From: Candidatus Aenigmatarchaeota archaeon
Lineage (GTDB): Archaea; Aenigmatarchaeota; Aenigmatarchaeia; QMZS01
NCBI GenBank assembly: GCA_016932615.1
Contig: JAFGCN010000027.1
Coordinates: forward strand, 15,277-79,276
Reading direction: 5' to 3'
Length of the DNA stretch: 64,000 nt
A program made the position numbers and the translations under genes. The notes beneath the pieces were generated by a model. The model made no database searches, was not told the DNA's origin, and saw only the letters and a program-made list of their open reading frames with translations. This document shows positions 2,053 to 55,702 of the stretch, in pieces. Position 1 is the stretch's first letter, and each line of letters starts with the position of its first letter.

Positions 2053-3003
2053 ATGAACGCCAAGGAAATCGTGGCAAAAAAATGCGGGCTCGAGCCGGGC
2101 CACAGCATGTGCGCGGGCTGCGGAGTTCCGATAATTGTAAAGCAGATTCTTTCGTCGGTCGATAATCTTGTCGTTGCTAACGCGACCGGCTGCCTTGAGG
2201 TTGCAACAACCGCTTACCCTTACTCTTCCTGGAAAGTTCCCTGGATTCATAACGCTTTTGAAAACGCAGCGGCAACAATTTCCGGTGCGGAAGCTGCTTA
2301 TCAGGTCTTCAGGAGGAAAGGCAAGATAAAAAAGAAGATTAACTTCCTTGCAATAGGCGGCGACGGGGGCTTTTTTGACATTGGCCTTCAGTCCCTTTCA
2401 GGCGCCCTTGAGAGAGGACATGATTGTGTTTACATTGTTTACGACAACGAGGCCTACCAAAATACCGGAAGCCAGAGAAGCTCTGCAACCCCTCTTGGCG
2501 CAAGCTCCACGACAACCCCCGCCGGAAAGGTGAGCTACGGAAAGGAGGTTCCAAGAAAAGACCTTGCAAAGATTGCGATTGCCCACAATATACCCTATGT
2601 AGCGCAGATGGCGCTTCACAACTACGCAGACCTTACCAGAAAGGTAAAAACCGCCTTTGAAAACACCCCTGCTGTTCTTGTGGTGCTCCAACCGTGCCCC
2701 ACAAACTGGAAATTCGACTCCGGAAGGACAGTCGAGCTTTCAAAGCTTGCCGCCGAAACCTGCTACTGGCCGCTTTACGAGTACAACCGGGGAGTTTACA
2801 AGATAAATTACGTCCCCAAGAGAAAGGCGCCTGTTGAGGAATTCCTGAGGATGCAGGGGCGCTTCAGGCACCTTCTGACCGAACAAAACCGCCATGTGGT
2901 CGAGAAAATCCAGGAGGAAGTCGACAAAAACTGGGAAAACCTGCAGAAATTGGAGGAATTTACCAGGGTTTCCACCTCTGAAGCCATAGAAGAAATTAAT
3001 TAA
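2053..3003 (+). CDS. porB: 2-oxoacid:ferredoxin oxidoreductase beta subunit (TPP-binding, PorB-like).
   Basis: N-terminal Cys cluster CAGCG...ATGC, a TPP motif (AIGGDGGFFDIG) and YDNEAYQNTG. The length of 316 aa is typical. No alpha or gamma subunit is seen in the window. Confidence 0.7.
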   Translation: MNAKEIVAKKCGLEPGHSMCAGCGVPIIVKQILSSVDNLVVANATGCLEVATTAYPYSSWKVPWIHNAFENAAATISGAEAAYQVFRRKGKIKKKINFLAIGGDGGFFDIGLQSLSGALERGHDCVYIVYDNEAYQNTGSQRSSATPLGASSTTTPAGKVSYGKEVPRKDLAKIAIAHNIPYVAQMALHNYADLTRKVKTAFENTPAVLVVLQPCPTNWKFDSGRTVELSKLAAETCYWPLYEYNRGVYKINYVPKRKAPVEEFLRMQGRFRHLLTEQNRHVVEKIQEEVDKNWENLQKLEEFTRVSTSEAIEEIN

Positions 3004-4147: not shown

Positions 4148-5827
4148 TTACCTCATCTTGCCTGCTTCCCATTCCTTCATCTTGCCCTTTCCTACGGCCT
4201 GCCCTCCGATGAATCCGTGCTGCTCTTCCACGACCTGCAAGAGCCCCTTTATCGGGTCCATGAAGTGCTCCTGGATTTGGGTTTCCTGCATCTTGATGGC
4301 CGAATCCTCCAGCCCGTAAAAATGTAGATTTTCGGGCTCGGAAAGCTTTTCGGGGGGAACATCTTTTCGGAGAAACTCCACGTTTTTCTTGAGGGACATC
4401 GTGCTCTGGTCAACAGGGTCGCCGCCGACGCCGCCGGCTCTCTCGAAAATTATGAATCTAGTTTCGCTTTCGTCAAAGCCCCTTTTCCTGAGCATATACA
4501 TCCACCTGTAGAGCTGCTCCTGCTGCTCGGAGCCAAGGTAGATTGGGACGTGAGCCGGGCCAAGCGGAGTGGGCCAGCCGACGTGAAGCGTGTTCACATA
4601 CCTTGCGCTTCCAGAGCCCATTTCTTCTATGAACTTGTCAGGGTCAAGCTCGGCTCCAAGGCAGTGCTCAAAGTCGATTGCAGTCCTAAACCACTTGCAC
4701 CCTGCCTTTTCCATCTCCCTGCAAAGTATCACAAAGTGCGCGGGGTTGGCAGCTCTTGGCAGGTCCTCCATTCCTGACTTCATTGTTTCGGTCTCGATTA
4801 CGAATGGGATTTGGTATTGGCTTAGGAAGGGTTTAGGGTCCTTGAAGCAGTGCTCACCGCACTTCCCTTTTGCCTCTTCCGGGAAAAAATGCCCCCAGAT
4901 ATACTTCAGCGAAACTGCCGGGACCCAGATGTAAGGGTCGTTTTTCACGTTTTCCATCTTTTTGCCTTTTGTAATGTCTTTCCAGAGCGGGTCGCCCTTG
5001 TCGGACATCCACTTTCCAATCGAGAGATATGCCAGTCTTTCAGGGCCATAGCTAAGCTCAGATCTTTTTAGCTTTTCTACAGTATAGAACTTTACAATTT
5101 CTGGAGCGGATTTCTCAATAAGCTTTTTTATCCTTTCGTCAACCCTCTTCTGGAATTCCTGCAATAGTTTCTGAGCCTGTTCGGGTGGCGTTGACTGTGT
5201 AATAGTTTTCCCTTCTTTGTCCATTTCAGCTTTTACTTCTTCCTTGGCCTTTGGGCTGTATTTTTCTGGGTTCCGGGGATCTTCTATGATGTCTTCCACA
5301 GTGCTTCCTGCAACTATCCTTATCTCTTCCTGGTGTATGAGCCAGTTGAAGACATTCTCGTTTTCCTGCAGGAAAATCCAGAGCGGCCTTCCCCAGATAT
5401 CAACTACCTGAGTTGACTGGAAGTCTTTACCAAGCCAGCCATAGGGCTTGGTTTCAGAGGCGTGCTGAAGAAGGTACATTGCTTTTGCCTTGCCGCTTCT
5501 CTCTATATCACGAAGGAGGCATGCGTGCGTCCTTTCCCAGTCTTCTTTTACAGCCGAATCCAGGAGGATTCCGTTTGCGCCCATTGCAGTGGAGAGGCCG
5601 TGTATTCCGTAATGGATATTCATCTCCCTTAGCTGCTCTAGCTTTTTCATGACTCCTGGCGCAAGAAACTCTGCGGAAGTTTCGAGGTCAATCTGTGTAA
5701 ATGTAACGCCCTTAAATGCAGTATAAAAGCCCTTCTGGGCAAGGTCAATCTGGCCTATCTTTTCCTGCGGAGACGCCATGCTGAAAACCCCGGAGCTTAC
5801 GCCTATGGTATAACCCAGATTGGCCAT
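4148..5827 (-). CDS. Hypothetical 559-aa protein, possibly with two xylose-isomerase-like TIM-barrel halves.
   Basis: Long uninterrupted ORF with conserved-looking His/Glu-rich segments (IDFEHC, HVGW). The family assignment is only tentative. Confidence 0.45.
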   Translation of the reverse strand: MANLGYTIGVSSGVFSMASPQEKIGQIDLAQKGFYTAFKGVTFTQIDLETSAEFLAPGVMKKLEQLREMNIHYGIHGLSTAMGANGILLDSAVKEDWERTHACLLRDIERSGKAKAMYLLQHASETKPYGWLGKDFQSTQVVDIWGRPLWIFLQENENVFNWLIHQEEIRIVAGSTVEDIIEDPRNPEKYSPKAKEEVKAEMDKEGKTITQSTPPEQAQKLLQEFQKRVDERIKKLIEKSAPEIVKFYTVEKLKRSELSYGPERLAYLSIGKWMSDKGDPLWKDITKGKKMENVKNDPYIWVPAVSLKYIWGHFFPEEAKGKCGEHCFKDPKPFLSQYQIPFVIETETMKSGMEDLPRAANPAHFVILCREMEKAGCKWFRTAIDFEHCLGAELDPDKFIEEMGSGSARYVNTLHVGWPTPLGPAHVPIYLGSEQQEQLYRWMYMLRKRGFDESETRFIIFERAGGVGGDPVDQSTMSLKKNVEFLRKDVPPEKLSEPENLHFYGLEDSAIKMQETQIQEHFMDPIKGLLQVVEEQHGFIGGQAVGKGKMKEWEAGKMR

Positions 5828-25336: not shown

Positions 25337-26998
25337 CTAATCGGTGTACAGATTCATCAAGTCTTTTGCTTTAGCCATGATTAAACTGGCTCTTTGGTCA
25401 ATAAAGGAGTCATAATCGAGGTCTGCAAAATCTCTTGGAATTAACGATTCGTCGATATACTCATTAAAATGGCGCCTGTCAATTCGCCGAATATATTCGC
25501 TTGGTGCCTCATCCTTTATGGTATTGTTATCTCCTCGGGTTAAGAAACAAATATTGGCCAGCACATTTATTTTTCTTTTCTCAACACTACTTCGCTCCAA
25601 ATGCTTTTTGGGAAAAATGTGGTGAAATTCATGGGTATTTACTTTATTTAATACCCTTTCCAGCTTTATCGTTGTACCACTTACAAAAGAATGTGGCTCA
25701 AGTGAACCTAGTAAAAGAATTAACGTTTTTGAATCGGCACTTCCAGATGAGAACTTACTGTTCTTAAAGTCTACCTTAATTTCATCCAAAGGGTAATTGA
25801 AGCTATGATTTTCGTCATCCTTTAAAGCTTTAAACTCAGTAATATCAACAGCTTGCTTTTCATTAACGCCTGCAGAAAATCTTCGAGTAAAGACCGATCT
25901 CCAAAACCATTTCATCATTTTTTGTTTTTGCTTATCAGTATAAGGTGAACCTTCGGTTCTACAAGTTTCAAAGAAAACACTTAATGGGACAATGAGACCT
26001 GGGAACGGGAGCAATTTGTAATTCTTAATGTTTAATTCCCCTTTTAAGAAGTCAATTGCACCCAACATACCTCTCCTAATGTCTTCAAATCTTTCTCTAA
26101 TTTCTTGACCTTGCATTTCAAGGATTGCCTTGGGAGTAGTTTCTCCTCTAATAATCCCTGCACATATCCTTAATTGTAGGTCTCTATCTTTACACAACCC
26201 TTCGTACCCATGCTCTGCAATTTCTTCTTGAAGTTCGTCAAATTTTTCAACCAGGTCAAAATCTTCCGACCAGCTCCATGCGGACAAAAGTTGAAAGATG
26301 TCTAGCTCTGTACCCGCCCGATTTATTCTTTCAAAAACAATGGCTACACTATTCCGATCTTGTGACTCAAATGTCTCGTTGGGTATTAAGTATTCCTTAA
26401 ATCGGTCTTGAAGATTATCGATTTCTAATTTTTGCTTATCGGATAGCTTTTCCGTTGCTTTTCTATAACCTACCGTATCAAATAATACCTTCATGGGAAA
26501 ATATCTGTTTGAATCAACCTCTGATTCGTCAAGCGCTACAAATAACGATTCTTGGATACTTTCTTTAGCCTCCAAGTCAAAATATATATCCACCCATTCA
26601 TCATCTACTGGTGTAAGAGTGGTTTGAAAAACGCTAAATAAGCTAGTGATTCTTTGTTGCCCATCTAACACATAATTTACAGGATAATCTTTTAGCGGTT
26701 GAGGCAGAACAAATCTTCCCAGATCTTTTTCTGTTGTAAGGCGAGTATCAGTTTTCCATAAAATGATGGTTCCTATCGGAAAACCTTTGTAAATGCTATC
26801 TAGCAAAAATGCTACTTGATCAGGTTCCCAAACAAAATCTCGTTGAAAGGCCGGGATTCTTATATCTCCTGAAGAAATTCTCTCAATCAACTTCCTAATC
26901 GTAAGAGGGTCTCCCATTATAGTAGTTATATGGAATACCTCTGTACTCGGTCGTTTTCTGTTGATTTTAGACCCCTTGTTGAGTGCAACACTGTTCAA
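25337..26998 (-). CDS. DUF262-DUF1524 fusion protein: an N-terminal ParB/Srx-like NTPase domain and a C-terminal His-Me finger (HNH-like) nuclease, as in the GmrSD/SspE/BrxU family. Putative modification-dependent restriction or defence nuclease.
   Basis: N-terminal FQRDFVWEPDQVAFLLDSIYKGFPIGTIILW and DGQQRITSLF (DUF262 hallmarks). C-terminal HEFHHIFPKKHLERSSVEKRKINVLANICFLTRGDNNTIKDE (DUF1524-type H..H/N..N motif). The ORF begins at TTG (26998), and the first ATG is at 26917. Confidence 0.75.
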   Translation of the reverse strand: MNSVALNKGSKINRKRPSTEVFHITTIMGDPLTIRKLIERISSGDIRIPAFQRDFVWEPDQVAFLLDSIYKGFPIGTIILWKTDTRLTTEKDLGRFVLPQPLKDYPVNYVLDGQQRITSLFSVFQTTLTPVDDEWVDIYFDLEAKESIQESLFVALDESEVDSNRYFPMKVLFDTVGYRKATEKLSDKQKLEIDNLQDRFKEYLIPNETFESQDRNSVAIVFERINRAGTELDIFQLLSAWSWSEDFDLVEKFDELQEEIAEHGYEGLCKDRDLQLRICAGIIRGETTPKAILEMQGQEIRERFEDIRRGMLGAIDFLKGELNIKNYKLLPFPGLIVPLSVFFETCRTEGSPYTDKQKQKMMKWFWRSVFTRRFSAGVNEKQAVDITEFKALKDDENHSFNYPLDEIKVDFKNSKFSSGSADSKTLILLLGSLEPHSFVSGTTIKLERVLNKVNTHEFHHIFPKKHLERSSVEKRKINVLANICFLTRGDNNTIKDEAPSEYIRRIDRRHFNEYIDESLIPRDFADLDYDSFIDQRASLIMAKAKDLMNLYTD

Positions 26999-31959: not shown

Positions 31960-34900
31960 TTAGCTTGTAACTTCCATGACGAGCACTGAACCGGAATAAA
32001 TCAGGTACTCCGAATCGCTGCTTATGTCAGCAGTAATTTTTGCCTTGTATATGAAGGGCACAGTAGTCTCATAGCCGCTACCCGATAAAGGGAGCTCTAT
32101 CGATTCAAGCGCGATGCCTTCATAATCCAAGGCCCCTACGGGGCTTTCCGTCATTCTTATTTCAAGACTGCCGCCGAAGTTTCCGGTCTGGAAGTAATGG
32201 TAGACCTTTATTTTCACTCTTTCGCCAGGGTTTATATCGGACTTTGTGACGCTAAGCGTTATGTCTTTTTCAGGATTTTTCTTTGAAAGGACCGCCGTTT
32301 CGTAGCTTGATTTTATCCTGATTCCAGACCCCTCCCAGGCACCTTCCCTGCACACATAGAGCGAGCCCTTTCTCATTGCAGTGTATCCGTTTCCGACACA
32401 GGAATTTTCAAGGGCGCATTGTCCATTGAAGCAGCATATGCTTTTTGATTCATCTATGAGGGTGGGCGAGCAAGTGTAATCTGACGTTCCGGGAAGGTTG
32501 CAGTCGCAGTCATGAAGGCACTCCGCGTTTCCGACTCCGCCTTTACCCCAGACGCCGTTCTTGCACATCCACATGCACCCGTTAAGGTCGTTTTGCCCTT
32601 CCGGGTAGCACTCTATATTTGTAGGGCCTGTGGCGTGAGCGCACTGCCCCTTAGGGCAGCAGTAAAAGCAGGTGTCGTTTTTTATGGAAGTGTCCGTTTC
32701 GTAGAAACCGGGTTTGCCGGAAGTATATCCGCTTAGCCGATAGGTCACCATCTTGTAGGTCTGGCAGGTTTTTTCTCCGGGGCTTGAAAGAGTCGAGGGG
32801 CTGTCCTCCACACAAAACGAGTTTGGATAGCAGTCGGGGCTTTCAGAGTAGCAGAATGTCTTGTCGGGGGTATAGCAGTCGACGGTAATATTATATACAT
32901 TTTCGGTTGGCTTTCCTGCAAAGCTGATTTCATATGAGCCTGTTGCCTCCTTCAGCTCAAGCTTTTGCTTTCCGTTTGACTCAGGAACGGCAGGAACTTC
33001 TTCTTTGTTTTCGCTGAGCTCATAGATGTAGTCGCTGAAGGGGCTGTTGCCGTTATCCTCATACTGCTCGTATCCCTGCATTGAATGGCTAATCTTTGAA
33101 GCTTTTATCTGTATTTCATCATCAGCGCTTGGCTGTGGAATGACGTAGGCAATGGCGTCCCTTGGCCTGTCGAAGATTATGCTGTAGCTTAAGGGAGCAT
33201 TGCTGAAGCTGCTCTTCGGTGTGTTTACTCCATTGCAAAGGTTATAGTATTTATAATAATGGTCTGCCCGGTGATTGTCACACGGGTGGCTTATTTCGGT
33301 GTAGAGGGGTATTTTTTCAGTTTCTGATTCAAGTTTATAATTGAATATGGTTTCGCCACAGCTCTGGGAGTTAGTCCACTTGCCGTTATCACACTTTAGC
33401 TTTAGCCCCCCATATAGGATTTCAGTTCCATGCCTGTAGCATCCGACAGATGAATCTTCGTTAAGCGATTCGTAGCCATCCGTTCCTAAAACCTGCTTGC
33501 AATCTTTCCAGGTCGAATCTGAGCTGTCCCAGCATAGGGTAGGGCTGTCTGGGATTTCCACATGGGCGCAGTATGAAACCGTGCTGGTGAAGTCGCTCCA
33601 GGACTCCATTCCGGGGGATATAACTACGCCATCGTCTTGGACATTGCTGATTTGCTCTGTCGGGCAGCAAAAGCTCTGCCCGCCGGCAAAGTCTGCTGCG
33701 CAGTTTCCGGATGCACAGGGGTGAGAGTCATCGATTACCGTGTCTTCGCATTCGTAGAAATCCTTTATGGCAAGATAATTGCAGTAGCAGGCTTGTTTTG
33801 AGTTGAGGTAGGCATCCCTTTCTCCAATGCAGCTGCTGTGGTCTGAGCTTCCCGTTACACTCTCACAGCGGTAAGTTTTGCCTACGCTTGTCGGGCTGTC
33901 CCGGGGGTCAGCAATCATCGTGTACTTCTCGTTGTATATGAAATCTTCCTCGTCGGAGGCCTGCTCTTCTACCGGAACGCAGCAGTATTCGCCGTCAGGG
34001 CAAAGGGAGCCCTTCACTACTCCCCCATTTTTAACCACGGAAATTTTCCAGGAATATCTATTTGGATAATCACCGTAGTCAAGAAGGGGCTGGTTGCAGT
34101 ACTGCCAGTTGTTTACGGATAAGCTTGTTCTCTTGTACCAGGGTATGCTGGAGTCCACTTCCATACAGGTGCCACCTATGTCAGAGCAGGTTTTGGACTC
34201 ATCGATTGTACACTTGACTCCTGCCGGGCACATATTTGTGCCAACCCCTCTGGAAATAAAAAGCTGCTTTCCGCTTCCCCCGCACTCTCCGCCAAGCTTT
34301 ACTTCACAGAAGGCCTCATCGGGGTTGCTGTCCTGCATGTCTTTATAGTTCTGGCTTTGGTCGCTGCATCCTGCAAACCCGTCATAAACAGGGGCGTTAT
34401 CCATGCACCAGCCCTTGCAAAGTTCGTCCTCACACAGGCAGCCTGTTGAGCCGTCTTCTCCGCCGGGGCAGCCGGTGAAGTAGCGGGTGAGAAAGGAGCC
34501 GTCATGGTAGTAGTGACCCTCTGGATCGCCGCTGGGGAAGTGGTCCAGGCTAGAACTGTAGCCGCATCTATCCGTGCAGGTTACTTTTTTATTTGCATTG
34601 TCGTCTATGCACGTTTGCCATGGCTGGCAGTCTTTTACTGAGGAACTTCCCTCAGTCATTGCTGCTATTTTGCATAAATTGTCGCACCCGTCCTCACAGT
34701 AATAGAAATAGAGTTTGGTTTTATAGTCCGTGAACTTACTCATTGTCTCAAGGTAGTTTTTTGGGTCATAGGAGATCAGCTGGCTTTCCGTCCCACTAGA
34801 GTACCAGACCTCTTTGGCTTCAGAATAGGTTGGGTTTCCATCAGTACATTGGTCATCGAAGGGTGTGCAGTCAAACGTCCTGCTAAGACTGTCGCAATAG

Positions 34901-35055
34901 TTACAATCTCCTTCACAGTGAAACCCTTCAGAGTCGTCTTCACAGTGCGCTGTCGGGGCTATTAAGGTCAGGGTTATGAACAGTACAATCAAAGGTAAAA
35001 CTATCTCACTTCTCATACTCCTTAAGCTTCCCCTCAAGTTTTTCGACACCCTCAT
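31960..35055 (-). CDS. Giant secreted cysteine-rich protein, 1031 aa with about 130 Cys.
   Basis: N-terminal signal peptide (EIVLPLIVLFITLTLIAPTAHC), then Cys-dense sequence throughout with Gly/Asp/Tyr/Trp-rich segments. No obvious C-terminal anchor. Confidence 0.7.
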   Translation of the reverse strand: MRVSKNLRGSLRSMRSEIVLPLIVLFITLTLIAPTAHCEDDSEGFHCEGDCNYCDSLSRTFDCTPFDDQCTDGNPTYSEAKEVWYSSGTESQLISYDPKNYLETMSKFTDYKTKLYFYYCEDGCDNLCKIAAMTEGSSSVKDCQPWQTCIDDNANKKVTCTDRCGYSSSLDHFPSGDPEGHYYHDGSFLTRYFTGCPGGEDGSTGCLCEDELCKGWCMDNAPVYDGFAGCSDQSQNYKDMQDSNPDEAFCEVKLGGECGGSGKQLFISRGVGTNMCPAGVKCTIDESKTCSDIGGTCMEVDSSIPWYKRTSLSVNNWQYCNQPLLDYGDYPNRYSWKISVVKNGGVVKGSLCPDGEYCCVPVEEQASDEEDFIYNEKYTMIADPRDSPTSVGKTYRCESVTGSSDHSSCIGERDAYLNSKQACYCNYLAIKDFYECEDTVIDDSHPCASGNCAADFAGGQSFCCPTEQISNVQDDGVVISPGMESWSDFTSTVSYCAHVEIPDSPTLCWDSSDSTWKDCKQVLGTDGYESLNEDSSVGCYRHGTEILYGGLKLKCDNGKWTNSQSCGETIFNYKLESETEKIPLYTEISHPCDNHRADHYYKYYNLCNGVNTPKSSFSNAPLSYSIIFDRPRDAIAYVIPQPSADDEIQIKASKISHSMQGYEQYEDNGNSPFSDYIYELSENKEEVPAVPESNGKQKLELKEATGSYEISFAGKPTENVYNITVDCYTPDKTFCYSESPDCYPNSFCVEDSPSTLSSPGEKTCQTYKMVTYRLSGYTSGKPGFYETDTSIKNDTCFYCCPKGQCAHATGPTNIECYPEGQNDLNGCMWMCKNGVWGKGGVGNAECLHDCDCNLPGTSDYTCSPTLIDESKSICCFNGQCALENSCVGNGYTAMRKGSLYVCREGAWEGSGIRIKSSYETAVLSKKNPEKDITLSVTKSDINPGERVKIKVYHYFQTGNFGGSLEIRMTESPVGALDYEGIALESIELPLSGSGYETTVPFIYKAKITADISSDSEYLIYSGSVLVMEVTS

Positions 35056-35410: not shown

Positions 35411-37663
35411 ATGGCTCATTTGAAGGGCATGGACACCTGGATTTGGCTTGTCGGAGGAATTATCGTTACAATCCTTTCCATGTTTCTGTTCTTAAACCTT
35501 TTTGCGAGCATCAATCTTCAAAGCCACACACAGGCCTCAGTTGAGACCTCTGGAAACCTTGCTTCTGACATAAACCGGCTTTGCTCGATGAAGGAGGGCG
35601 AGGCGATGAACCGGGAAATGAAGTTCTCGACCATTGTAACAGAGTTTTATGCTTCACATAATGGCTCTATTGAAATTGATTCCGGGAGGACATACGGGCA
35701 GCTTTTGTGCGTAAATATATCCGGGAAAAGCTCCTGCAGCGAGCTTGACTGCCCCCTTGAGATTTCGACGATAATAACAGAGAAGAAAATCCTCTCCCTC
35801 ATCGACAAAATGCGAGGCGACATAAGCTACAGGGACTATTCCGTGGAAGCAGTAAGGACTTCCTGTGGGGTGTCAGTACTTTTGAAAGGTGAGCGGTCTG
35901 GCTGCATCTGCGGGCTCGGGGAGTTTGATACCCCGGTTTACTGCGACTATAACGGTCACCAGCCCATAGTTATTTCCAAGGATCACTCGGTTGTCCTTGC
36001 CGATACCGAGCCATGGCTTTCTCCAGATGAAGACTCACTTCAGCTCTTCTCTAACATTGCCGGATACCTTGGCGGAAATTCAATTCTCATCCTTTATGAT
36101 GATGATTCAGTTGACCCTGCCCTGACCCAGGCGTCTCAGGTAATAGATCAGGTAATCTCTGAAGGGTATAGCGTAGACTCTGTGCTCCATGAAGCCGCTG
36201 TTGACTTTTCAGCGTATGACCAGGTCTGGCTAGTCACACCTGGATTTTGCGAGCTTTCTTCGAGGAACTGCAGCCAGCATTACCGGTGGAGCGTTAATGA
36301 GGAAAAGCGGCTTATCGAATATGCGGATTCCGGAGGCAAAATTTTGCTTGTCACCGATTCTGGTCTTGTAAATGGGGTTTATGGCCAGATGGGGCTTGAC
36401 TTAATAAACTCCCTCCTGATTGAGCTGGGCTATCCTCTTGAGCAGTTGCCGAGTTGTGTCTGCGGCTGTGAAGGAAGGCCGACTAACCAGACCGTTCTTG
36501 AAGCGGGCGGCATTGGCGATGGGCTTAGCGTTCTTAACGTGCTTGGCGCGGCTGTCTTCAGGGAGACTTGCATATATGACCCGAAGGAAAGCGGAGGCGA
36601 TTCCGGCGTTGGTGGGTGCGGCTCTGACAGGCTATGTTACCCGAACTGCCCTTCGGGAGACCCCGACTGTTCCTGCATAGAGCAAAATGGCTTTGTCTGC
36701 GACGAGGAAAAGGACTGCCCTGGAACAAAGCTAAAGCATGCCGGCGGGCGTACCTGCTGCTCTGAGCAATGTTCCGCTTCAGGCCCGCAGGTCTGCCAGA
36801 ATACAAGCGATGTTCCGGAAGGGGGCCTGTGCGTTTGCACAGGGCAGTGCCAGCCCGGCCTGTCTTGCGGGGATAAGAAGCGCTGCTGCCCTGCTGGAGC
36901 CGAATGGAACGGTTCTAAATGCTCAAAATCCGAAATCTGCTCGAGTTCTATTTCAAAGTGCTATGGCCAGGGCCATTGGGAGCATTATGGCTCACGGAAT
37001 TTTTTCAGTAATGTGGGCCGCGCCTGCGAATGCAAAATATATTCTGGCATGACAACGCCAGCGCCGCAGTCTCAGCGGTGCTATGGCTGCGATTATGTTG
37101 AAGTCTGCCAGTCCAGCGTGGTCAAGCCCATTGCAGAGGAAATCATAAATTGCTGCAATTCAAAATGCACTGATAGCGGAGGGCATGGAAGCTGCATGAA
37201 GTATTGTTCCAATGCAGTCCAGAATTCAGGGCTTTCCTCGACAGAAACTGACGACACACTGAAGAAATGCTATGGCCTTTACGCAATATATGGGATGGGC
37301 CCTGGCGCCAAATGGACAAGGGGATACATGCTCCATATAGAGGCGCCTGCTTCGGTCATGTTTAGCGGCGGAACATGGATGTGCAGCGGGTATTCCCTGA
37401 TGCTCACCACGCTTTTGAGAAGCGTGGGCTACACGACTTCAGAGGCATATTCAATTTCTTCAGATGACCATGCATACAACCTGGTGAAATTTCCTGGCGA
37501 CACGAAATATACTCTTGCAGACACGGTTAATAATCGCCCCAGTCCTGTTAGGCTGGGGTCTGTTCCGGGCGGATACCTTCACTGCAGCTATATCTCCAAC
37601 ACCTGCGGCAATGATGCCGGGATGTTCACATGCCCTTCAAGGGGCAATGTTTATGGGTGCTGA
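35411..37663 (+). CDS. Membrane-anchored cysteine-rich protein with a C-terminal transglutaminase-like (Cys-His-Asp) core.
   Basis: N-terminal TM (WIWLVGGIIVTILSMFLFLNLF), a middle region with 60+ Cys, and a C-terminal GGTWMCSGYSLMLTTLLRSVGYT...SDDHAYNLVKF that matches the transglutaminase-like cysteine peptidase signature. Confidence 0.6.
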   Translation: MAHLKGMDTWIWLVGGIIVTILSMFLFLNLFASINLQSHTQASVETSGNLASDINRLCSMKEGEAMNREMKFSTIVTEFYASHNGSIEIDSGRTYGQLLCVNISGKSSCSELDCPLEISTIITEKKILSLIDKMRGDISYRDYSVEAVRTSCGVSVLLKGERSGCICGLGEFDTPVYCDYNGHQPIVISKDHSVVLADTEPWLSPDEDSLQLFSNIAGYLGGNSILILYDDDSVDPALTQASQVIDQVISEGYSVDSVLHEAAVDFSAYDQVWLVTPGFCELSSRNCSQHYRWSVNEEKRLIEYADSGGKILLVTDSGLVNGVYGQMGLDLINSLLIELGYPLEQLPSCVCGCEGRPTNQTVLEAGGIGDGLSVLNVLGAAVFRETCIYDPKESGGDSGVGGCGSDRLCYPNCPSGDPDCSCIEQNGFVCDEEKDCPGTKLKHAGGRTCCSEQCSASGPQVCQNTSDVPEGGLCVCTGQCQPGLSCGDKKRCCPAGAEWNGSKCSKSEICSSSISKCYGQGHWEHYGSRNFFSNVGRACECKIYSGMTTPAPQSQRCYGCDYVEVCQSSVVKPIAEEIINCCNSKCTDSGGHGSCMKYCSNAVQNSGLSSTETDDTLKKCYGLYAIYGMGPGAKWTRGYMLHIEAPASVMFSGGTWMCSGYSLMLTTLLRSVGYTTSEAYSISSDDHAYNLVKFPGDTKYTLADTVNNRPSPVRLGSVPGGYLHCSYISNTCGNDAGMFTCPSRGNVYGC

Positions 37664-39877: not shown

Positions 39878-40041
39878 ATTCCTGTTAGTTTCGTTTCCAG
39901 TTACGAAGTTCTGGAAACCTGCGTCCGCAGAGTCGGGAGAAAGGGCGTTCTATCAAATGAGCGAATGCTATACATCAAGAACAAGAATCTAGAGGCGTTT
40001 GCAATTATATTTATATAGAAGTAAGCATTATTAAATTTATA

Positions 40042-41283
40042 ATGGAAAAAGATGAAATATTGAAAGAGATAACAGATAAATATCTTGGTTCAGAAGAATT
40101 CAATGGTTATGCTCTTTATAATTTGGAAAATGAAATACAAAAGATAATTGAATTAGTTAAGGATGAAAAAATTGAAATAAATTTTGGTGATGGGCATCCG
40201 AATTTTCATATTAAAGCATTTGATTGTGATAATGTAGATACTCAATTAAAAAAAATTGATTCAATGGGACTTAATAATTCATGTGCATATCCAACAAAAA
40301 AATATCTCAAAACAAAAATACCTTATGGAAAATATAAAGATAAACCATTTACGAGATTGATTGCATTAGGTGAAGCAACACTAAACTTTGCGGTGTTTGA
40401 TTTAAGTGTTCTAGAAATATATAGAAATGATCCTAGGTTTTCATATTCTACTGATGATGTTGGTGGGCAAATTAACATCTCTGATGATTACTATAAATCT
40501 ACAGAAGTAAAATCCTCCGATAAAATTTTACTTCAGACGTTTGGTTTTTGTTATGAAAAAGAAAAGTTTAATAGAGCAGTTGCAGTATTTTATAGATATC
40601 TGGCTAATTTATCTGATGAACATCAAAAAATATGGCATGCTAAACTTTTGAGTGGAGATTATTTTTTACACCCGGATTATGCCCGAAGTTCTATGGGACA
40701 TTGGCCTGAAAAAGTTTCAATTTTTGAAGCATTTATTGAAGAACTAAAAACGATTAATGAGTTTTCTAAATTAATGAATAGACCAACTTTATTTAAGGAA
40801 GATTTCAAAAATAATAAACCTAGAGATTTTGCATTTTTAATCCGACCAACACTTAAAGAATTTAATTCATTTATTCATTTGTTAGATAAAATGATTTCTG
40901 ACAATATCAATAAAGATTTTTTTAAGGATGATATTGAGTTAGAATCTGAAGAAATTAGAACAGATGGTAAGATTATTGTTAGACAAAAAGCAACGATTAC
41001 TCTACTGAAAGACTGGTTAGATAAAGTAGTCAAATTTCCTGATCCAAAACCTAAGGAAGAAATGATAAAAACAATAAGAAATATTAGAACTATGCGTCAA
41101 CATCCTGCTCATAAAGTTGATGAAGATGTTTTTGACCAAAAATATTTCAAAGAACAAAGAGAGTTAGTTATTGAAGCATATAATGCAATAAGAACTTTGA
41201 GATTAATTCTTGCAAATAATCCTAGAACCAGATCTTATGAAGTGCCAGATTGGTTATATAAAGGAGAAATTTGGTCATTTTGA
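40042..41283 (+). CDS. Hypothetical 413-aa protein on a strongly AT-rich segment, carrying a C-terminal HEPN-like Rx4H motif. Possible Abi-like defence protein.
   Basis: Codon usage and base composition differ sharply from the flanks (roughly 30% G+C by eye). IRNIRTMRQHPAHK contains Rx4H twice. No other family recognised. Confidence 0.55.
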   Translation: MEKDEILKEITDKYLGSEEFNGYALYNLENEIQKIIELVKDEKIEINFGDGHPNFHIKAFDCDNVDTQLKKIDSMGLNNSCAYPTKKYLKTKIPYGKYKDKPFTRLIALGEATLNFAVFDLSVLEIYRNDPRFSYSTDDVGGQINISDDYYKSTEVKSSDKILLQTFGFCYEKEKFNRAVAVFYRYLANLSDEHQKIWHAKLLSGDYFLHPDYARSSMGHWPEKVSIFEAFIEELKTINEFSKLMNRPTLFKEDFKNNKPRDFAFLIRPTLKEFNSFIHLLDKMISDNINKDFFKDDIELESEEIRTDGKIIVRQKATITLLKDWLDKVVKFPDPKPKEEMIKTIRNIRTMRQHPAHKVDEDVFDQKYFKEQRELVIEAYNAIRTLRLILANNPRTRSYEVPDWLYKGEIWSF

Positions 41284-41401
41284 TGTAAACGCCCCCTTCT
41301 ATTTTTTAGCCCTTTCTCCCGATTGAAACTAACAACTGTTTAACGAACTTTATTCTCCTTTGCCTCGTCTTTTATGAGTATTAACGAAATAAGCGGTTAA
41401 C

Positions 41402-43522
41402 TTAATACACAAACAGCATCTCCCTGAACTTGGGCACAGGCCAAAGCTTGTCCTCGACTTCTCCTTCAAGCCCGTCGATTGCTTCCCGAAGGTTTGCCAT
41501 TACGTTCAGCACTTCGCTGGTCTTTCCTGCTTCGATAATTCTTTCAAGGTTTTCCGATTCATGCATGGCCTTTGATATGAGGTTTGAAACCCTGTTCAGT
41601 CTCTTTTCCATTCCGGATATGCTTTTGGCGTTTTTGTTTGCTTCTTTTAGGAGCAAGACCTCTCTGCAAAGATTTCTCTGGTGGCGAAGGGCGGCAGGCA
41701 GAATCATTGTTTTTGCAAGGTCGAGCATGCACTTTCCCTCGAGGTCGATTGTTTTTTCATACATCTCCCAGAGTATGTGGTACCTTGACTCAAGCTCCCT
41801 TTTTGAGTAGACCCCGTACTTTTCAAAAAGCTTTTGGGCTTTTTCGGACCTGAGGTATTCAAGGGCTTCGGGAGTTGCCCTGATGTTTAAAAGCCCCCTT
41901 CTTTTTGCCTCTTCCTGCCACTCGGGGCTGTAGTTGTCGCCGTTGAAGATTATCCTCTTGTGCTTTCGTATTGTTTCAAGCAGCACTTTCTGAAGCGCCT
42001 GATTGAAGATTTCCCCTTTTTTGGTAAGGGCTTCGGCTTGGCTGCATATTTCGTCCAGCGCTTCTGCGATAATTGTATTGAGGACCGTGTTTGCTCCCGC
42101 GCATGACTGGCTTGAGCCAACTGCCCGAAACTCGAATTTGTTTCCGGTAAAAGCAAATGGAGAAGTCCTGTTTCTGTCTGTCGTGTCTTTTGGTATCGGT
42201 GGAATTGAGCTTACACCGATTTTCAGCATTTCCTTTGGCTTTCCGGTGCCATTTCTGCCGCTTTCAATCCGAGAAATTATCTCCGTAAGCTCGTCGCCAA
42301 GCGAGATGGAGATTATTGCTGGAGGCGCTTCATTTGCGCCGAGCCGGTGGTCGTTTCCGCTTGAAGCAACTGACGCGCGAAGAAGGTCTGCGTGCTTGTC
42401 AACAGCCATAATGACCGCGCAAATGGCTGTGAGGAATTTTGCGTTTTCCTGCGGGTTGTGCCCCGGGTCAAGCAGGTTTTTTCCGTCAGGGCCAAACAAG
42501 CTCCAGTTGTTGTGTTTTCCGGAGCCGTTTACTCCCTTGAATGGCTTTTCGTGAAGCAGGCATACAAGGCCGTGCTTTTCTGCGGTTTCTTTCAGTATCT
42601 GCATGATCAGCATGTTGTGGTCCACCGCAAGGTTTTGCTCCTCATAGAGGGGCACTATCTCGAACTGGGCGGGGGCGACTTCATTGTGCCTCATCTTTGC
42701 GGGTATGCCAAGCTTCCAGCACTCCTTGTCAACTTCCTCCATGAAGCAAATGACTCTTTTCCTTATGCTTCCGAAATAATGGTCTTCCATCTGCTGGTGC
42801 TTTGAGCCGATTCTTCCAAAAAGAGACCTCCCCGTCAGTATGATGTCCGGCCTTTCCAGGTAAAAGTCCCTGTCGATTAGAAAATACTCCTGCTCTATTC
42901 CCACCATCGGGACGGCTTTCTTGTCTGGAAGTTCTTCGCCGAATAGCTTCAGAAGCCGCCTCGTGGACTTGGAAAGCGCTTCGGCAGACCTTAGAAGAGG
43001 GGTTTTCTTGTCAAGCGCATCCCCGTTGTAAGAGTAGAACGCGGAAGGAATGCAAAGTGTCGGGCTCTCGCCGATGTACTTTATGAATGCCGGGCTTGTC
43101 GGGTCCCAGGTTGTGTGGCCTCTTGCCTCGAATGTTGCGCGAAGTCCGCCTGAGGGAAAGCTTGAAGCATCCGGCTCCCCGGAAACGAGGTTTTTGGCCG
43201 AAAATTTCATTATTGCCCTTCCGTCCGAAAGGGGCTCCAAAAATGCCTCGTGTTTTTCTGCAGTGAGTCCCGTCATCGGCTGGAACCAGTGGGTGAAATG
43301 CGTTGCGCCTTTTGAAATCGCCCAGTTTTTCATGCCTTCAGCGACGTCACCCAGCAGCTCTTCAGGGAAAGGGTCTCCCCGGTCCAGGGTGTTTTTGAGC
43401 GCGGTAAAAGCGGGGGTTGGCAGATATGCGCTCATTGCATTAAGCCCAAAGGAATTCTCGCCGTAGGTTTCCGTGATTTCTGTTTTTCCGGCGTTATCTG
43501 CGGCCATACCTAATCTTTCCAT
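41402..43522 (-). CDS. glnN: Glutamine synthetase type III.
   Basis: 706 aa. The GS catalytic core is present with the GSIII-specific long N- and C-terminal extensions (NGSGKHNNWSL, MAVDKHADLLRASVASSGNDHRLGANEAPPAIISI). Confidence 0.75.
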   Translation of the reverse strand: MERLGMAADNAGKTEITETYGENSFGLNAMSAYLPTPAFTALKNTLDRGDPFPEELLGDVAEGMKNWAISKGATHFTHWFQPMTGLTAEKHEAFLEPLSDGRAIMKFSAKNLVSGEPDASSFPSGGLRATFEARGHTTWDPTSPAFIKYIGESPTLCIPSAFYSYNGDALDKKTPLLRSAEALSKSTRRLLKLFGEELPDKKAVPMVGIEQEYFLIDRDFYLERPDIILTGRSLFGRIGSKHQQMEDHYFGSIRKRVICFMEEVDKECWKLGIPAKMRHNEVAPAQFEIVPLYEEQNLAVDHNMLIMQILKETAEKHGLVCLLHEKPFKGVNGSGKHNNWSLFGPDGKNLLDPGHNPQENAKFLTAICAVIMAVDKHADLLRASVASSGNDHRLGANEAPPAIISISLGDELTEIISRIESGRNGTGKPKEMLKIGVSSIPPIPKDTTDRNRTSPFAFTGNKFEFRAVGSSQSCAGANTVLNTIIAEALDEICSQAEALTKKGEIFNQALQKVLLETIRKHKRIIFNGDNYSPEWQEEAKRRGLLNIRATPEALEYLRSEKAQKLFEKYGVYSKRELESRYHILWEMYEKTIDLEGKCMLDLAKTMILPAALRHQRNLCREVLLLKEANKNAKSISGMEKRLNRVSNLISKAMHESENLERIIEAGKTSEVLNVMANLREAIDGLEGEVEDKLWPVPKFREMLFVY

Positions 43523-43604: not shown

Positions 43605-44318
43605 ATGAACCTCTACGGAAAGCGGCCGGTAATCGAAAGAATGAGGGTTGACCCCGAAAGCATAAGGGCAATCTATGTTGAGGGAGGAACCCATATCGAG
43701 GAGCTCTCAAGGATTGCCCATGAAATCGGCTTTCGCCTTAACAAAATACCGAGGGACAAGTTCTACCGCATGTCGAGGGGGCTTAACACCCAGGGTGTGA
43801 TTGCAGAGGTCGAGGACTTTGTTTACAACGATTATGAGGACATAGTCTCCGCGCCTGACGAAATAAAGCCGATACTGGTTTTTCTTGACGGGGTCACTGA
43901 CCCGCAGAACCTTGGCTCGATTATCAGGAGCTTGGCGTGCCTGGGCGGCTTTTGCCTTGTCCTTCCCAGAAGAGAATCCGTTGACGTAAATGAGACGGTT
44001 CTCCGGGTCGCTAGCGGCGGCGAAAGCCACATGCCCATTTGCCAGGTTTCAAACCTCAGCAATGCGATTATCCGCGCTAAACGGGAGGGCTACTGGATTG
44101 GCGCAACAGTCGTAGAGGGGGGAGTGAACCCTGCCAAAGCCCGCTTGAATTTTCCGCTTGGCCTGATTTTCGGCTCGGAAGGCCAGGGGATAAGGCCGGG
44201 GCTGATGAACAGGGTGGACTATATGCTCACGATTCCAATGAAGGGCGCTGACCTGTCCTTCAATGTCGCGGTGGCGGCAACCCTTTTCTGCTACGAAGCT
44301 GCAAAACAGAGGGAATGA
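43605..44318 (+). CDS. SpoU/TrmH-family RNA 2'-O-methyltransferase (RlmB-like).
   Basis: SPOUT motifs (VFLDGVTDPQNLGSIIRS, LIFGSEGQGI, NVAVAATL). Confidence 0.75.
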   Translation: MNLYGKRPVIERMRVDPESIRAIYVEGGTHIEELSRIAHEIGFRLNKIPRDKFYRMSRGLNTQGVIAEVEDFVYNDYEDIVSAPDEIKPILVFLDGVTDPQNLGSIIRSLACLGGFCLVLPRRESVDVNETVLRVASGGESHMPICQVSNLSNAIIRAKREGYWIGATVVEGGVNPAKARLNFPLGLIFGSEGQGIRPGLMNRVDYMLTIPMKGADLSFNVAVAATLFCYEAAKQRE

Positions 44319-51476: not shown

Positions 51477-51557
51477 GGATGGCTCTTGGGCTTTTGTTTT
51501 GTCTTGTTTTGATATTTTCTGACAGAGCCGATGCTTTATTTTAATCCAAATTATATT

Positions 51558-51857
51558 GCGGGAGTGTCCGAGTCTGGCCAACGCTTTTTCTGCCTTTAAA
51601 TCCCATGAAGGAATGGGGCGGAATGATGGTTAAAGGAGCAGGACTTAAGAAATTAAGTTTGGAGCCGAAAAACGGCGATGACTGCCGAAAAAGCTCTTTT
51701 AAGAAATCCTGTGCGTTAGTCGCTGCGAGGGTGAATCTTTTTCTTTTGAAAAAGAAAAAGCTCCAGGACCAAAAAGAAAACAAATATTTCGCTTCGCGGA
51801 ATAATGCCTGAAGGTCGGGGAAGAAGATTTCCTTGAATTCGAATCCCTTCTCCCGCA
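51558..51857 (+). tRNA. tRNA-like gene of class II (Leu/Ser) type, with about 210 nt of intervening sequence. Putative multi-intron tRNA. The anticodon is not resolved.
   Basis: The 5' GCGGGAG and 3' CTCCCGC are perfect complements. The 3' end carries a canonical T-loop and stem (TTCGAAT-CCCTT) immediately before the acceptor strand, with discriminator A. The 5' end carries TG plus a Leu/Ser-like D-arm (TCCGAGTCTGGCCAA). A T-rich tract follows the 3' end. Confidence 0.4.
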
Positions 51858-51876
51858 CATTTTTAAGGTCTGGCTT

Positions 51877-53259
51877 CTAGTTAAGCTTCTCTATGCAGCT
51901 TCCAAGCTGGAAAACTTTTCCTTCCTGCAAATGGTCGCCGATTATGTGAAGCCCTATTGGCATTCCTTCGCTTCTGCCGACAGGAACGGACAGGTGAGGC
52001 ACTCCGCAAAGGTTTGGCCCCACAGTCAGGATGTCCATTGCGTAGTGCTGGGCAGGCGTAAGCTCTGCGATGTCTGTGAACTTGGGAGCGACAATCGGCA
52101 TTGTGGGCGTAACGATGCAGTCGAACTTCTGGAAAGCAGACTTGAATTCCTTTATCAAATGTGCTCGGACCTTCAGGGCTTTAAGGTAATACTTGTCCCT
52201 GTAGCCGGATTTCCTGTAGAATGTCCCAAGAATGCACCTCCTTTTTGCCTCGAGCCCAAAGTACTTCCCGCGGACTTTCGAGAAAAACTCGTTGTACCCT
52301 CCTTCAATCTCAAGGGTTGAGCCGTACCTTATGCCGCAGAACTTGGCAAGGTTTGTAGATGCCTCGCTCATCGCGATTATGTAGTATGACGGAAGCGCAT
52401 ACTTTGTGGAAGCAAGGGAGAACTCTTCGTACTTTATCCCGGCAGACTCTAGCTTTTTTATCTGCCTCCAGATTTCCTGCTTAATCTCTTCATTGACACC
52501 CTCGAAATATTCTTTGGGAACGCCCACCCTCATTTTCGAGGGATCTTTTTCAAGAAAGCTCGTATAATCCTCATCTTTTCGGTTTATTGAGGTGGAATCC
52601 CTTTCGTCAAATCCGGCAATTTTCGATAGGCCCCATGCGGCCTCAAAGCAGTTTTTGCCGATTATGCCGACCTTGTCGAGGGAAGAGGCGTAGTCTATCA
52701 TTCCATATCTTGAAACCCTTCCGTATGTGGGTGTTATTCCGACCACTCCGCAAAAAGAGGCGGGGCAGGATATGGAGCCGCCGGTTGATTCTGCCATTGC
52801 AACGTGTGGCAGGTTCTGGAGTGCTGCAGTCAGGCATGCGGCGCCGCCCGAAGAGCCGCCGCAGCTTCTTCTGGGGTCAAGCGGGTTTTTGGGAACGCCG
52901 AAAGCGCAGTTCATGGAAAAAGTGCCAAAGCCAAACTCGTCCATTGCGGTCTTTCCTATGATGTAACCGAAGTTCTTTATTTTTTCAACCACGTGGGCGT
53001 CAAATGGGGGGACATAAGTTTCAAGTATCCTGCTCCCTGCGGTCGTCCTTATCCCGCTTGTGCAGAGGCAGTCCTTTACGGAAATTGGGACTCCTGGAAA
53101 GCTTTCCTTTGCGCCCATTTTCTCGCAGTGGCTTAGCGCTTCGTCTCTTGAAACTGTAATAAAGGGCCCGAATTTGCCCTGAATTCTGTCAACTTCCTTC
53201 CATATCTTTTCAAATACTTCCCCCTGGTTGGGGTTTTCGAGATATTCCTTAAGGTCCAT
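51877..53259 (-). CDS. gatA: Glutamyl/aspartyl-tRNA amidotransferase subunit A (amidase signature family).
   Basis: GGSSGG signature (CGGSSGGAACLTAA), the Ser-cisSer-Lys triad context and a typical length of 460 aa. Confidence 0.85.
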   Translation of the reverse strand: MDLKEYLENPNQGEVFEKIWKEVDRIQGKFGPFITVSRDEALSHCEKMGAKESFPGVPISVKDCLCTSGIRTTAGSRILETYVPPFDAHVVEKIKNFGYIIGKTAMDEFGFGTFSMNCAFGVPKNPLDPRRSCGGSSGGAACLTAALQNLPHVAMAESTGGSISCPASFCGVVGITPTYGRVSRYGMIDYASSLDKVGIIGKNCFEAAWGLSKIAGFDERDSTSINRKDEDYTSFLEKDPSKMRVGVPKEYFEGVNEEIKQEIWRQIKKLESAGIKYEEFSLASTKYALPSYYIIAMSEASTNLAKFCGIRYGSTLEIEGGYNEFFSKVRGKYFGLEAKRRCILGTFYRKSGYRDKYYLKALKVRAHLIKEFKSAFQKFDCIVTPTMPIVAPKFTDIAELTPAQHYAMDILTVGPNLCGVPHLSVPVGRSEGMPIGLHIIGDHLQEGKVFQLGSCIEKLN

Positions 53260-55472: not shown

Positions 55473-55623
55473 GCGGAGGTGGCAGAACAGCTATGCATCC
55501 GGCTGCAGTCCTACCCTTTCTTTGCAAAAGAAAGGCTGAGGTTCACCCAAAGAAAGCAGATTCCTGCTTCGCAGAAACAAAAGCGGTTACCGGACCAAGA
55601 GGGTGCGACTCCCTCCCTCCGCT
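55473..55623 (+). ncRNA. tRNA-like structured RNA locus. Acceptor-stem complements GCGGAGG/CCTCCGC and a T-arm-like hairpin enclose an approximately 75-nt insertion.
   Basis: 5' GCGGAGG-TG-GCAG...CTGC (D-stem-like) and 3' GAGGG-TGCGACT-CCCTC-CCTCCGC-T. The T-loop is non-canonical (G at position 55) and the D-loop is over-long, so this may be a degenerate or intron-containing tRNA. Confidence 0.3.
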
Positions 55624-55702
55624 GTCAGACCTTTTCTTTAGGAAAGAAAAGGGCCGACACCCCCAAAAGAACCCTATTCCTGCTTCGCAGGAATAACAGC
55701 GG
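55514..55702 (+). repeat. Two tandem copies (about 116-nt period) of a structured element. A third, diverged copy lies at about 51737-51806, inside the tRNA-like locus.
   Basis: Each unit has a T-rich/A-rich hairpin (CCTTTCTTT...AAAGAAAGG), CCCAAAGAA, and a second hairpin ATTCCTGC-TTC-GCAGGAAT. The copy at 51786-51802 reads ATTTCGC-TTC-GCGGAAT, with compensatory changes that keep the stem. Confidence 0.55.

Follow-up and report, generated by a model that had tools for sequence, protein, structure and literature searches.

The 64-kb stretch of contig JAFGCN010000027.1 analysed here (the window, i.e., the whole of that stretch of DNA) carries at 51558-51857, on the forward strand, a tRNA-Leu(UAA) gene in which four exons are separated by three introns. 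We put the probability that this locus is a functional three-intron gene of a Candidatus Aenigmarchaeota archaeon, a member of the DPANN group, at about 0.93. Removal of 214 nt in total (52 + 56 + 106) allows the exons to be joined in silico into an 86-nt class II tRNA, or 89 nt with CCA. The exons are colinear and in order on the forward strand, within 300 nt, and lie between an upstream A/T-rich block and a downstream T tract.

A sequence-only reading of this locus had proposed a candidate class II tRNA gene, disrupted by multiple introns or in another manner as in some archaea, and the present analysis bears out the multi-intron reading in the form of a tRNA-Leu(UAA) gene with three introns, each flanked by bulge-helix-bulge (BHB) splice signals, in an Aenigmarchaeota metagenome-assembled genome (MAG). 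Two of the checks that it had suggested, ARAGORN and a search for BHB motifs, returned a call of Leu(taa) for the spliced product and 4/4 paired helix positions at all three introns. The features on which it relied are also as described: The acceptor strands, GCGGGAG at 51558 and CTCCCGC at 51850, are complementary at 7/7 positions; the discriminator A at 51857 is followed by CA and then by TTTTT at 51860-51864; the T-loop TTCGAAT at 51838 is followed by CCCTT; and TG plus TCCGAGTCTGGCCAA stands immediately 3' of the 5' acceptor strand. Its estimates of size need adjustment: About 210 nt do have to be removed, but as three separate introns totalling 214 nt rather than as one block, and the mature length that it gave as about 88 nt is 86 nt. 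The features of the locus are as follows.

51535-51557 (+): A/T-rich promoter-like block TTTATTTTAATCCAAATTATATT, abutting the mature 5' end; consensus of the relatives, TTTTTAAWNCYAAATWATATT
51558-51581 (+): exon 1, GCGGGAGTGTCCGAGTCTGGCCAA; acceptor 5' strand, U8 G9, D-stem 5' strand, D-loop to A21
51582-51633 (+): intron 1, 52 nt, in the D-loop at 21/22; BHB with 4/4 helix pairs
51634-51649 (+): exon 2, AGGAGCAGGACTTAAG; D-stem 3' strand, G26, anticodon-stem 5' strand, loop through G37
51646-51648 (+): anticodon TAA, within exon 2
51650-51705 (+): intron 2, 56 nt, at the canonical site 37/38; BHB with 4/4 helix pairs, flanked by the 5-bp anticodon stem
51653-51681 (+): kink-turn (K-turn) or guide-like module in intron 2, found in 12/12 distinct intron-2 sequences
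51706-51731 (+): exon 3, ATCCTGTGCGTTAGTCGCTGCGAGGG; A38, anticodon-stem 3' strand, long variable arm, T-stem 5' strand
51732-51837 (+): intron 3, 106 nt, in the T-arm at 53/54; BHB with 4/4 helix pairs and a long closing helix h'
51734-51801 (+): conserved core of intron 3; U-rich/A-rich hairpin, CCAAAAAGAAAAC, CGCTTCGCG hairpin
51838-51857 (+): exon 4, TTCGAATCCCTTCTCCCGCA; T-loop, T-stem 3' strand, acceptor 3' strand, discriminator A73; CCA is not encoded
51860-51864 (+): T5 tract, 2 nt past the discriminator; T-rich tracts follow the gene in most orthologs

The spliced tRNA and its splice signals

Direct reading of the spliced sequence finds U8, A14, G18G19, U33, G37, T54-T55-C56, A58 and A73, together with G53:C61, G15:C48 and a long variable arm. 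From the unspliced DNA at this locus, ARAGORN makes no tRNA call and Rfam reports no match; even at a permissive threshold (E<=10) the Rfam search of the locus gave chance matches only (an internal ribosome entry site, a microRNA and a counter-transcribed RNA) and no intron family. As a positive control for Rfam, the intact tRNA-Cys gene of one relative (L005; relatives are given such labels where they need to be told apart) scores 52.6 bits.

Relatives were reached in two ways: through contigs that encode homologues of the adjoining GatA (66-82% identical, protein database), and through a search of genome and metagenome collections for DNA that matches exon 3 exactly. Peptide-seeded GatA searches of genome and metagenome contigs returned no relative. 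There are 13 distinct orthologous versions of the gene, all from Aenigmarchaeota. As to the host, the GatA adjoining the window gene is 100% identical to an NCBI protein entered as 'MAG: Candidatus Aenigmarchaeota archaeon', the exon-3 matches fall in contigs titled as Aenigmatarchaeota MAGs, and archaeal genes for ribosomal proteins, the proteasome and an RNA polymerase subunit occur in the window.

Among these versions the exon pieces are mostly identical, although the adjoining GatA is only 66-82% identical, and the introns diverge freely. In relatives with a GatA identity of 74-82%, identity of the exon pieces is 100%. Exon 1, for example, is identical in L003, L004, L009, L019, L021 and L011, and in L001 and L002 an additional intron interrupts it. 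The few differences found in exons are compensatory. When the versions are spliced in silico, giving six distinct sequences, all cloverleaf cells pair (138/138), with six pairs changing on both sides; none of 500 shuffles reaches the observed values, and sliding the pairing partners lowers pairing to 49-64%. Some of the pairs join different exons: 10:25 pairs across intron 1, 50:64 across the T-arm intron, and the acceptor pairs across all of the introns. Because covarying pairs span different exons, selection acts on the spliced molecule.

The same comparison bears on the possibility that the region encodes protein and that its tRNA-like pieces are coincidental. Open reading frames (ORFs) do exist here, at 51541-51858 (-), 105 aa, and at 51605-51811 (+), 68 aa, and in some relatives (e.g., L004 3733-3942) gene callers have put short ORFs across the corresponding stretch. 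Neither window ORF, however, has a Pfam match at E<=0.01, and the indels that distinguish orthologs (12-173 nt) are not multiples of three and fall exactly at tRNA exon boundaries. Invariant short blocks between freely varying stretches are the reverse of a coding pattern, and we consider this explanation to have a negligible chance of being right.

The archaeal splice signal is a 4-bp helix between two 3-nt bulges (PMC4090602). We applied it as a fixed rule, whereby the four nucleotides before the last two of the exon pair with the four before the last two of the intron, and the cuts fall past the second bulge nucleotide. With a slash marking the cut, intron 1 has GGCC (51576-51579) paired with GGTT (51628-31) and bulges AA/C and AA/A; intron 2 has CTTA (51644-47) paired with TAAG (51700-03) and bulges AG/A and AA/A; and intron 3 has CGAG (51726-29) paired with CTTG (51832-35) and bulges GG/T and AA/T. 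Over all versions, 34/38 junction pairs satisfy the rule at 4/4 positions and the remaining 4/38 at 3/4, the chance of 4/4 for random junction pairs in the window being 2.3-2.5%.

An unbiased enumeration led to the same junctions. Between 51540 and 51875 there are 1,204 BHB-compatible deletions, and the 306,114 compatible pairs of these were spliced and judged by ARAGORN, with a canonical intron allowed. Only 32 of the 306,114 double deletions yield any tRNA call; the proposed combination is among them, and 29/32 use exactly 51732-51837. Further evidence comes from the relatives, in that each non-canonical intron is exactly missing from some ortholog. Since those orthologs read through the junctions, the splice points are fixed independently of any folding rule, and a residual ambiguity in the boundary of intron 1 is settled because some orthologs lack that intron.

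Several observations weigh against a functional gene spliced in this manner. None of the three BHB helices appears in the minimum-free-energy (MFE) structure of the full-length precursor (300 nt); their pair probabilities there are 0.15-0.17 (intron 1) and 0.00 (introns 2 and 3). In precursors that retain a single intron, the BHB conformers lie 4.2, 2.2 and 11.1 kcal/mol above the MFE for introns 1, 2 and 3, respectively. Because folding without constraints fails to find the BHBs, the introns cannot be delimited on thermodynamic grounds alone. At both non-canonical introns, the outer helices h and h' are short or offset. T5 tracts occur inside introns 1 (51585-89) and 3 (51738-42), with similar tracts in relatives; oligo-T is an archaeal termination signal, and these internal tracts might attenuate transcription of the gene. 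Finally, no gene for EndA, RtcB, L7Ae, Nop5 or fibrillarin was found among the roughly 60 ORFs of the 64-kb window. The BHBs at the two non-canonical sites are relaxed motifs with weak outer helices, and motifs of this kind require a broad-specificity endonuclease (PMC5829648).

Some of these points would also be expected if the locus were a dead tRNA-Leu pseudogene broken by three unrelated insertions: ARAGORN and Rfam are blind to the unspliced locus, the MFE of the full precursor lacks the BHBs, the internal T5 tracts could halt transcription, and one ortholog (L011) has an aberrant T-loop, TAAAGAAT. Yet the exons are identical across lineages whose GatA proteins are 66-82% identical, while the inserts diverge; the six compensatory changes keep the cloverleaf, some of them across inserts; each insert has a BHB in the right register at its borders; and a promoter block of conserved sequence stands at the same place in 12/13 distinct orthologous genes. 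As none of these features would persist in a pseudogene, we assign this explanation very little probability.

A different route to the mature tRNA, either through self-splicing group I or group II introns or through a split or permuted tRNA joined in trans, is less probable still, and could be right only by a very long chance. Group I introns are known from the anticodon loop of bacterial tRNA-Leu(UAA) genes. The DPANN archaea include an organism with split tRNAs, Nanoarchaeum equitans (PMC4033280). Against either form of this explanation, no Rfam intron family appears even at E<=10, and the inserts (52-106 nt, and down to 12 nt in relatives) are far too short for ribozymes; moreover, the four exons are colinear on one strand behind one promoter, with BHB geometry at every junction.

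The evidence thus far favors a three-intron gene whose exon and intron boundaries, BHB geometry and selection on the spliced product are as described; splicing itself, and the enzymes responsible, we infer from these. A precursor of about 300 nt would be transcribed from the conserved A/T-rich block at 51535-51557, which, to judge from its sequence, is presumably an archaeal TATA-type promoter, and the T5 tract at 51860-51864 is likely to act as the transcription stop signal. The archaeal splicing endonuclease (EndA) would cut past the second nucleotide of each bulge, an RtcB-type ligase would join the four exons into the 86-nt class II tRNA, and CCA would be added after ligation.

Intron turnover and an element common to tRNA-Leu and tRNA-Cys

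Across the 13 versions the introns vary in sequence, position and presence, and in length from 12 to 173 nt. The intron at 37/38 (41-56 nt) is the only universal one. The 21/22 intron is precisely absent from L002, the L008 family, L012, L025 and L026, in which TGGCCAAAGGAG is read uninterrupted; these same relatives, along with L001, have another D-loop intron, at 17/17a, that is absent from the window gene. The T-arm intron is absent from L007, leaving its T-arm uninterrupted. Where the T-arm intron is present, its site is 53/54 in the window lineage (CGAG:CTTG), 54/55 in L019 and the L008 family (GAGG:CCTC), and 59/60 in L026. Between the first two of these, the splice site apparently slid by one nucleotide and would have left the mature tRNA unchanged. 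The closest relative, L001 3083-3441 (-) (Logan SRR17234074_49042), has four introns, at 17/17a (44 nt), 21/22 (58 nt), 37/38 (54 nt) and 53/54 (117 nt), and would yield an identical mature tRNA of 86 nt.

One version has an unusual T-arm. In L011 (~249-432, +), GAGGG-TAAAGAAT-CCCTT stands in place of intron 3 plus TTCGAAT, without the universal T54-Psi55-C56, and this aberrant T-arm may stem from an intron that was lost imprecisely, from decay to a pseudogene or from an error of assembly.

The window contains a second tRNA gene with an intron. The sequence-only reading had stated that no canonical tRNA occurs elsewhere in the window, which holds for intron-less tRNAs (ARAGORN finds none) but not when introns are allowed: With its intron option, and only then, ARAGORN finds tRNA-Cys(GCA) at 55473-55623 (+), with an 80-nt intron at 37/38 and the T-loop TGCGACT. 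Rfam misses this gene as well. A heuristic scan for acceptor and T-arm combinations that might mark hidden tRNAs recovered both genes and was otherwise too noisy to use.

The intron of this tRNA-Cys gene resembles the core of Leu intron 3. The element, about 65 nt long, consists of a U-rich/A-rich hairpin, CCAAAAGAAARCAG, and a CCGCUUCGCGG hairpin, and occurs in the window in three copies, all on the forward strand: at 55513-55576 in the tRNA-Cys intron, at 51734-51801 in Leu intron 3, and at 55629-55692 in the 3' trailer directly after tRNA-Cys (nhmmer E-values with a hidden Markov model of the core, 4e-13, 8.2e-12 and 2.6e-7, respectively). Local alignment of the tRNA-Cys intron of the window to the core of Leu intron 3 gives z = 7.3 for the window's own copy, 12 against L002 and 20 against L019, values matched by 0/200 shuffles. 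L001 also has the element in its tRNA-Cys 3' trailer. In the Rfam search around tRNA-Cys no family matches the element, there being chance matches only. Judging from these alignments, the tRNA-Cys intron and the core of Leu intron 3 are homologous, and the element could be a mobile intron family or, alternatively, a small RNA of no known family that is carried on tRNA transcripts. Its occurrence at Cys 37/38, at Leu 53/54-54/55 and beside a tRNA matches the pattern of intron transposition described for Thermoproteales (cited in PMC4033280 and PMC8450103).

A T-loop intron occurs in another tRNA gene of this group: L005 4585-4698 (-), identical in L006 and situated downstream of gatA, is a tRNA-Gly(GCC) gene with an intron of about 40 nt in its T-loop.

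A kink-turn module in the canonical intron

The sequence-only reading had also suggested that the insert might encode a box C/D guide, as does the intron of archaeal tRNA-Trp, and had pointed to the C-box-like AATGATGG at 51622 and to CTGA at 51808. Both motifs exist, but they lie in different introns (1 and 3, respectively) and are not conserved: In orthologs, AATGTTAGG replaces AATGATGG, and CGTGAAG or CGTAAT replaces CTGAAGG. Such a pair cannot belong to one excised RNA, and no intron of the window contains both a terminal box C (RUGAUGA) and a box D (CUGA). Neither does AATGATGG of intron 1 qualify as a K-turn, in that the opposite strand has no GA beside the helix. The general idea of an intron-borne guide is backed by a different element, a K-turn hairpin at 51660-51681 in intron 2.

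The module starts with an antisense segment, TTAAGTT (51653-59), and continues through a D'-like TGGA (51660-63), the canonical-helix (C-helix) hairpin GCCG-AAAAA-CGGC (51664-76), a 3-nt bulge GAT (51677-79) and GA (51680-81). The layout is that of a simple K-turn (layout and nomenclature as in PMC4316175), in which the non-bulged strand has a GA next to the C helix and the bulged strand has its GA beyond a bulge of 3 nt. This order of NNGA, C-helix hairpin, NNU bulge and GA is kept in 12/12 distinct intron-2 sequences, with C helices of GCCG/CGGC, GCC/GGC, GCCC/GGGC, GAAC/GTTC, GTTC/GAAC and AACCTTT/GAAGGTT. MAFFT lost the register of the 3' strand of the K-turn, so a fixed-frame extraction with a placeholder loop was used instead; the three counted pairs of the C helix are 100% paired in this frame, which, having been picked by motif search, produces that figure partly by construction, and 3/3 show double-sided changes. 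UUAAGUU is complementary to G30-A36 of the tRNA, and its spacing is constant: The fifth nucleotide upstream of the D'-like box faces U34 in 12/12 versions, a register that agrees with the rule by which box C/D RNAs select their targets. The precursor can form this antisense hairpin or the BHB, but not both at once.

Two related structures occur in the same group of genomes. L005 4738-4942 (+), identical in L006 and likewise downstream of gatA, drew many alternative calls from ARAGORN, and the best reading among them is a tRNA-Trp(CCA) gene with a 40-nt D-loop intron and a 96-nt intron at 37/38. The tRNA-Trp intron contains GGAGUU-CUGA-UGC-AUAAU-GCA-GAU-GA, with a canonical CUGA; its antisense departs from that of tRNA-Leu exactly as the one anticodon loop departs from the other, and opposite its fifth nucleotide stands C34, the published target of the tRNA-Trp intron guide (PMC6313347, PMC2584109). 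The second is a putative free box C/D small RNA (sRNA) between tRNA-Cys and the EF-1-beta gene at L003 ~2553-2606 (+), the same in L004 and L009, with the arrangement AUGAAGA, about 10 nt, GGA-[GCC-GAAA-GGC]-GAUGA, 15 nt, CUGA. The internal D'/C' hairpin of this putative sRNA has a 17-nt identity with the Leu-intron K-turn of L002 and L019.

These findings raise the possibility that the 37/38 intron carries a box C'/D'-type K-turn that would bind L7Ae and guide fibrillarin in the 2'-O-methylation of wobble U34 before splicing. Position 34 of tRNA-Leu is a known site of 2'-O-methylation in bacteria (by TrmL) and in yeast (by Trm7-Trm734) (PMC6313347, PMC6847430). A number of features, however, do not favor guiding: There is one K-turn, and a terminal C/D box pair is absent; the duplex has just 7 bp, including one G-U; the non-canonical (NC) helix is 37% paired and lacks Watson-Crick support; and 6-17% of shuffled introns show the loose K-turn pattern by chance. 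A loose K-turn scan over 221 kb likewise gave many chance matches within coding sequence, and the credible copies are limited to versions with a G+C-rich hairpin in the Leu introns, the Trp intron and the L003 sRNA. On balance, we would rate guiding by this intron as plausible, at somewhat less than even odds.

Alternatively, the K-turn hairpin may be only an architectural or L7Ae-binding element that, for example, helps the RNA to fold or stabilises the intron after excision, and may guide nothing, with the antisense kept just for the local hairpin at the anticodon loop. The lone K-turn without a terminal C/D pair, the short duplex and the unsupported NC helix are all compatible with such a role, and L7Ae binds K-turns unrelated to methylation in RNase P RNA, rRNA and mRNA leaders (PMC4245976, PMC5539422); in the MFE structure, too, there is a plain hairpin, GGACUUAA-GAAA-UUAAGUUU. 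This explanation does not account for the distance from antisense to GA, which is constant in 12/12 sequences and sets position 34 at the fifth nucleotide, nor for the L005 tRNA-Trp intron, whose antisense has changed with its anticodon loop so that the fifth nucleotide meets C34, a known target, nor for the 17-nt hairpin identity with a putative free box C/D sRNA. We regard an architectural role as possible, at odds appreciably below even.

A broader proposal builds on guiding by the intron: The module would be a minimal, single-K-turn (C'/D'-only) guide acting in cis on U34, a natural 'half-mer' box C/D ribonucleoprotein and the first intron-borne guide outside tRNA-Trp, and the other introns would constitute a mobile structured RNA family, found also in the tRNA-Cys intron and 3' trailer, whose spread gave up to four introns per gene. 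As a whole this is speculative, and we think it rather unlikely. If the module does guide methylation of U34, then intron-directed wobble methylation extends from tRNA-Trp to tRNA-Leu, and one K-turn would suffice in vivo.

At 43605-44318 (+) the window encodes a SpoU-family RNA 2'-O-methyltransferase with an L7Ae-like SpoU_sub_bind N-terminal domain. From its domain content, this protein is a stand-alone candidate for ribose methylation of tRNA or rRNA in the same genome.

Genomic setting and comparison with known systems

The convergent neighbour of the tRNA-Leu gene is the GatA gene at 51877-53259 (-), and the rest of the window is that of an ordinary archaeal chromosome, with genes for aminoacyl-tRNA synthetases, SecY, ribosomal proteins, an RNA polymerase subunit, the proteasome alpha subunit, GatB and a type III glutamine synthetase. 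A patch of low G+C content at 40001-42000 (0.34 vs. about 0.47 elsewhere) may be foreign DNA; it includes a 413-aa ORF at 40042-41283 (+) that has no Pfam match and adjoins the type III glutamine synthetase gene. There are also four ORFs at 25337-26998 (-), 31960-35055 (-), 35411-37663 (+) and 4148-5827 (-), of which one has a GmrSD-type restriction endonuclease N-terminal domain and three large ones (1031, 750 and 559 aa) are without any Pfam match.

In DPANN archaea, disrupted tRNA genes go together with broad-specificity variants of EndA, namely epsilon2 in ARMAN-2 and alpha4 with an L3 loop in several DPANN lineages (PMC3239211, PMC5829648). The window resembles those genomes in its multiple and non-canonical tRNA introns, with relaxed BHBs and weak outer helices. 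It has been noted that the incomplete tRNA sets of new DPANN genomes suggest disrupted tRNA genes that are yet to be identified (PMC5829648), and the window gene fits that remark, the tRNA genes of Aenigmarchaeota being outside the sampling of that study. Because standard tRNA finders and Rfam miss the locus, this MAG and its relatives would be scored as having no tRNA that reads UUA and UUG, and an omission of this sort feeds false conclusions about genome completeness and about the host dependence of DPANN archaea; missing tRNAs of this kind have been flagged as an open issue (PMC5829648).

The closest published counterpart of the module in intron 2 is the box C/D guide in the intron of archaeal pre-tRNA-Trp, which directs formation of Cm34 and Um39 (Clouet d'Orval 2001 and Singh 2004, cited in PMC4090602, PMC6313347 and PMC2584109). 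The two share the 37/38 site, a K-turn with a D'-type GA and a C'-type GAUGA, an upstream antisense that can pair with the anticodon loop so as to set position 34 at the fifth nucleotide from the box, and the mutual exclusion of guide pairing and BHB. Unlike the tRNA-Trp guide, the window module resides in a Leu(UAA) gene and has one K-turn, with no terminal C/D boxes, no second guide and no target at position 39. Its D' and C' elements are parted by a mini-hairpin of 3-7 bp rather than by a short K-loop, its duplex is 7 bp as opposed to about 10-12, and its activity as a guide is putative.

As for the gene itself, other archaea have genes of the same type: tRNA genes with several introns and BHB signals are described from Thermoproteales (Pyrobaculum calidifontis, Thermofilum pendens), Nanoarchaeum equitans, Korarchaeum and ARMAN-1/2 (Sugahara 2007/2008, cited in PMC4033280; PMC8450103). 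The window gene is like these in having several short introns, at 37/38 and at non-canonical D-loop and T-arm sites, in its BHB signals (a 4-bp helix and two 3-nt bulges), and in the number of introns, three, which is the stated maximum per archaeal tRNA gene (PMC4033280, PMC8450103). It differs in its host, the multi-intron tRNAs reported from DPANN being those of N. equitans and ARMAN-1/2 (PMC4033280), and our literature search found no paper on multi-intron tRNAs in Aenigmarchaeota. It differs also in the length of its introns, which are 52-106 nt whereas archaeal tRNA introns have a typical median of 12-25 nt (PMC4090602). Outside the window, the four-intron gene of its close relative L001 sets this group apart from known multi-intron tRNAs and exceeds the published maximum. 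Like those of Thermoproteales, the tRNA genes considered here show fast intron turnover between relatives and related introns at different sites, and the 13 close versions provide a compact natural data set on the spread of archaeal tRNA introns outside that order.

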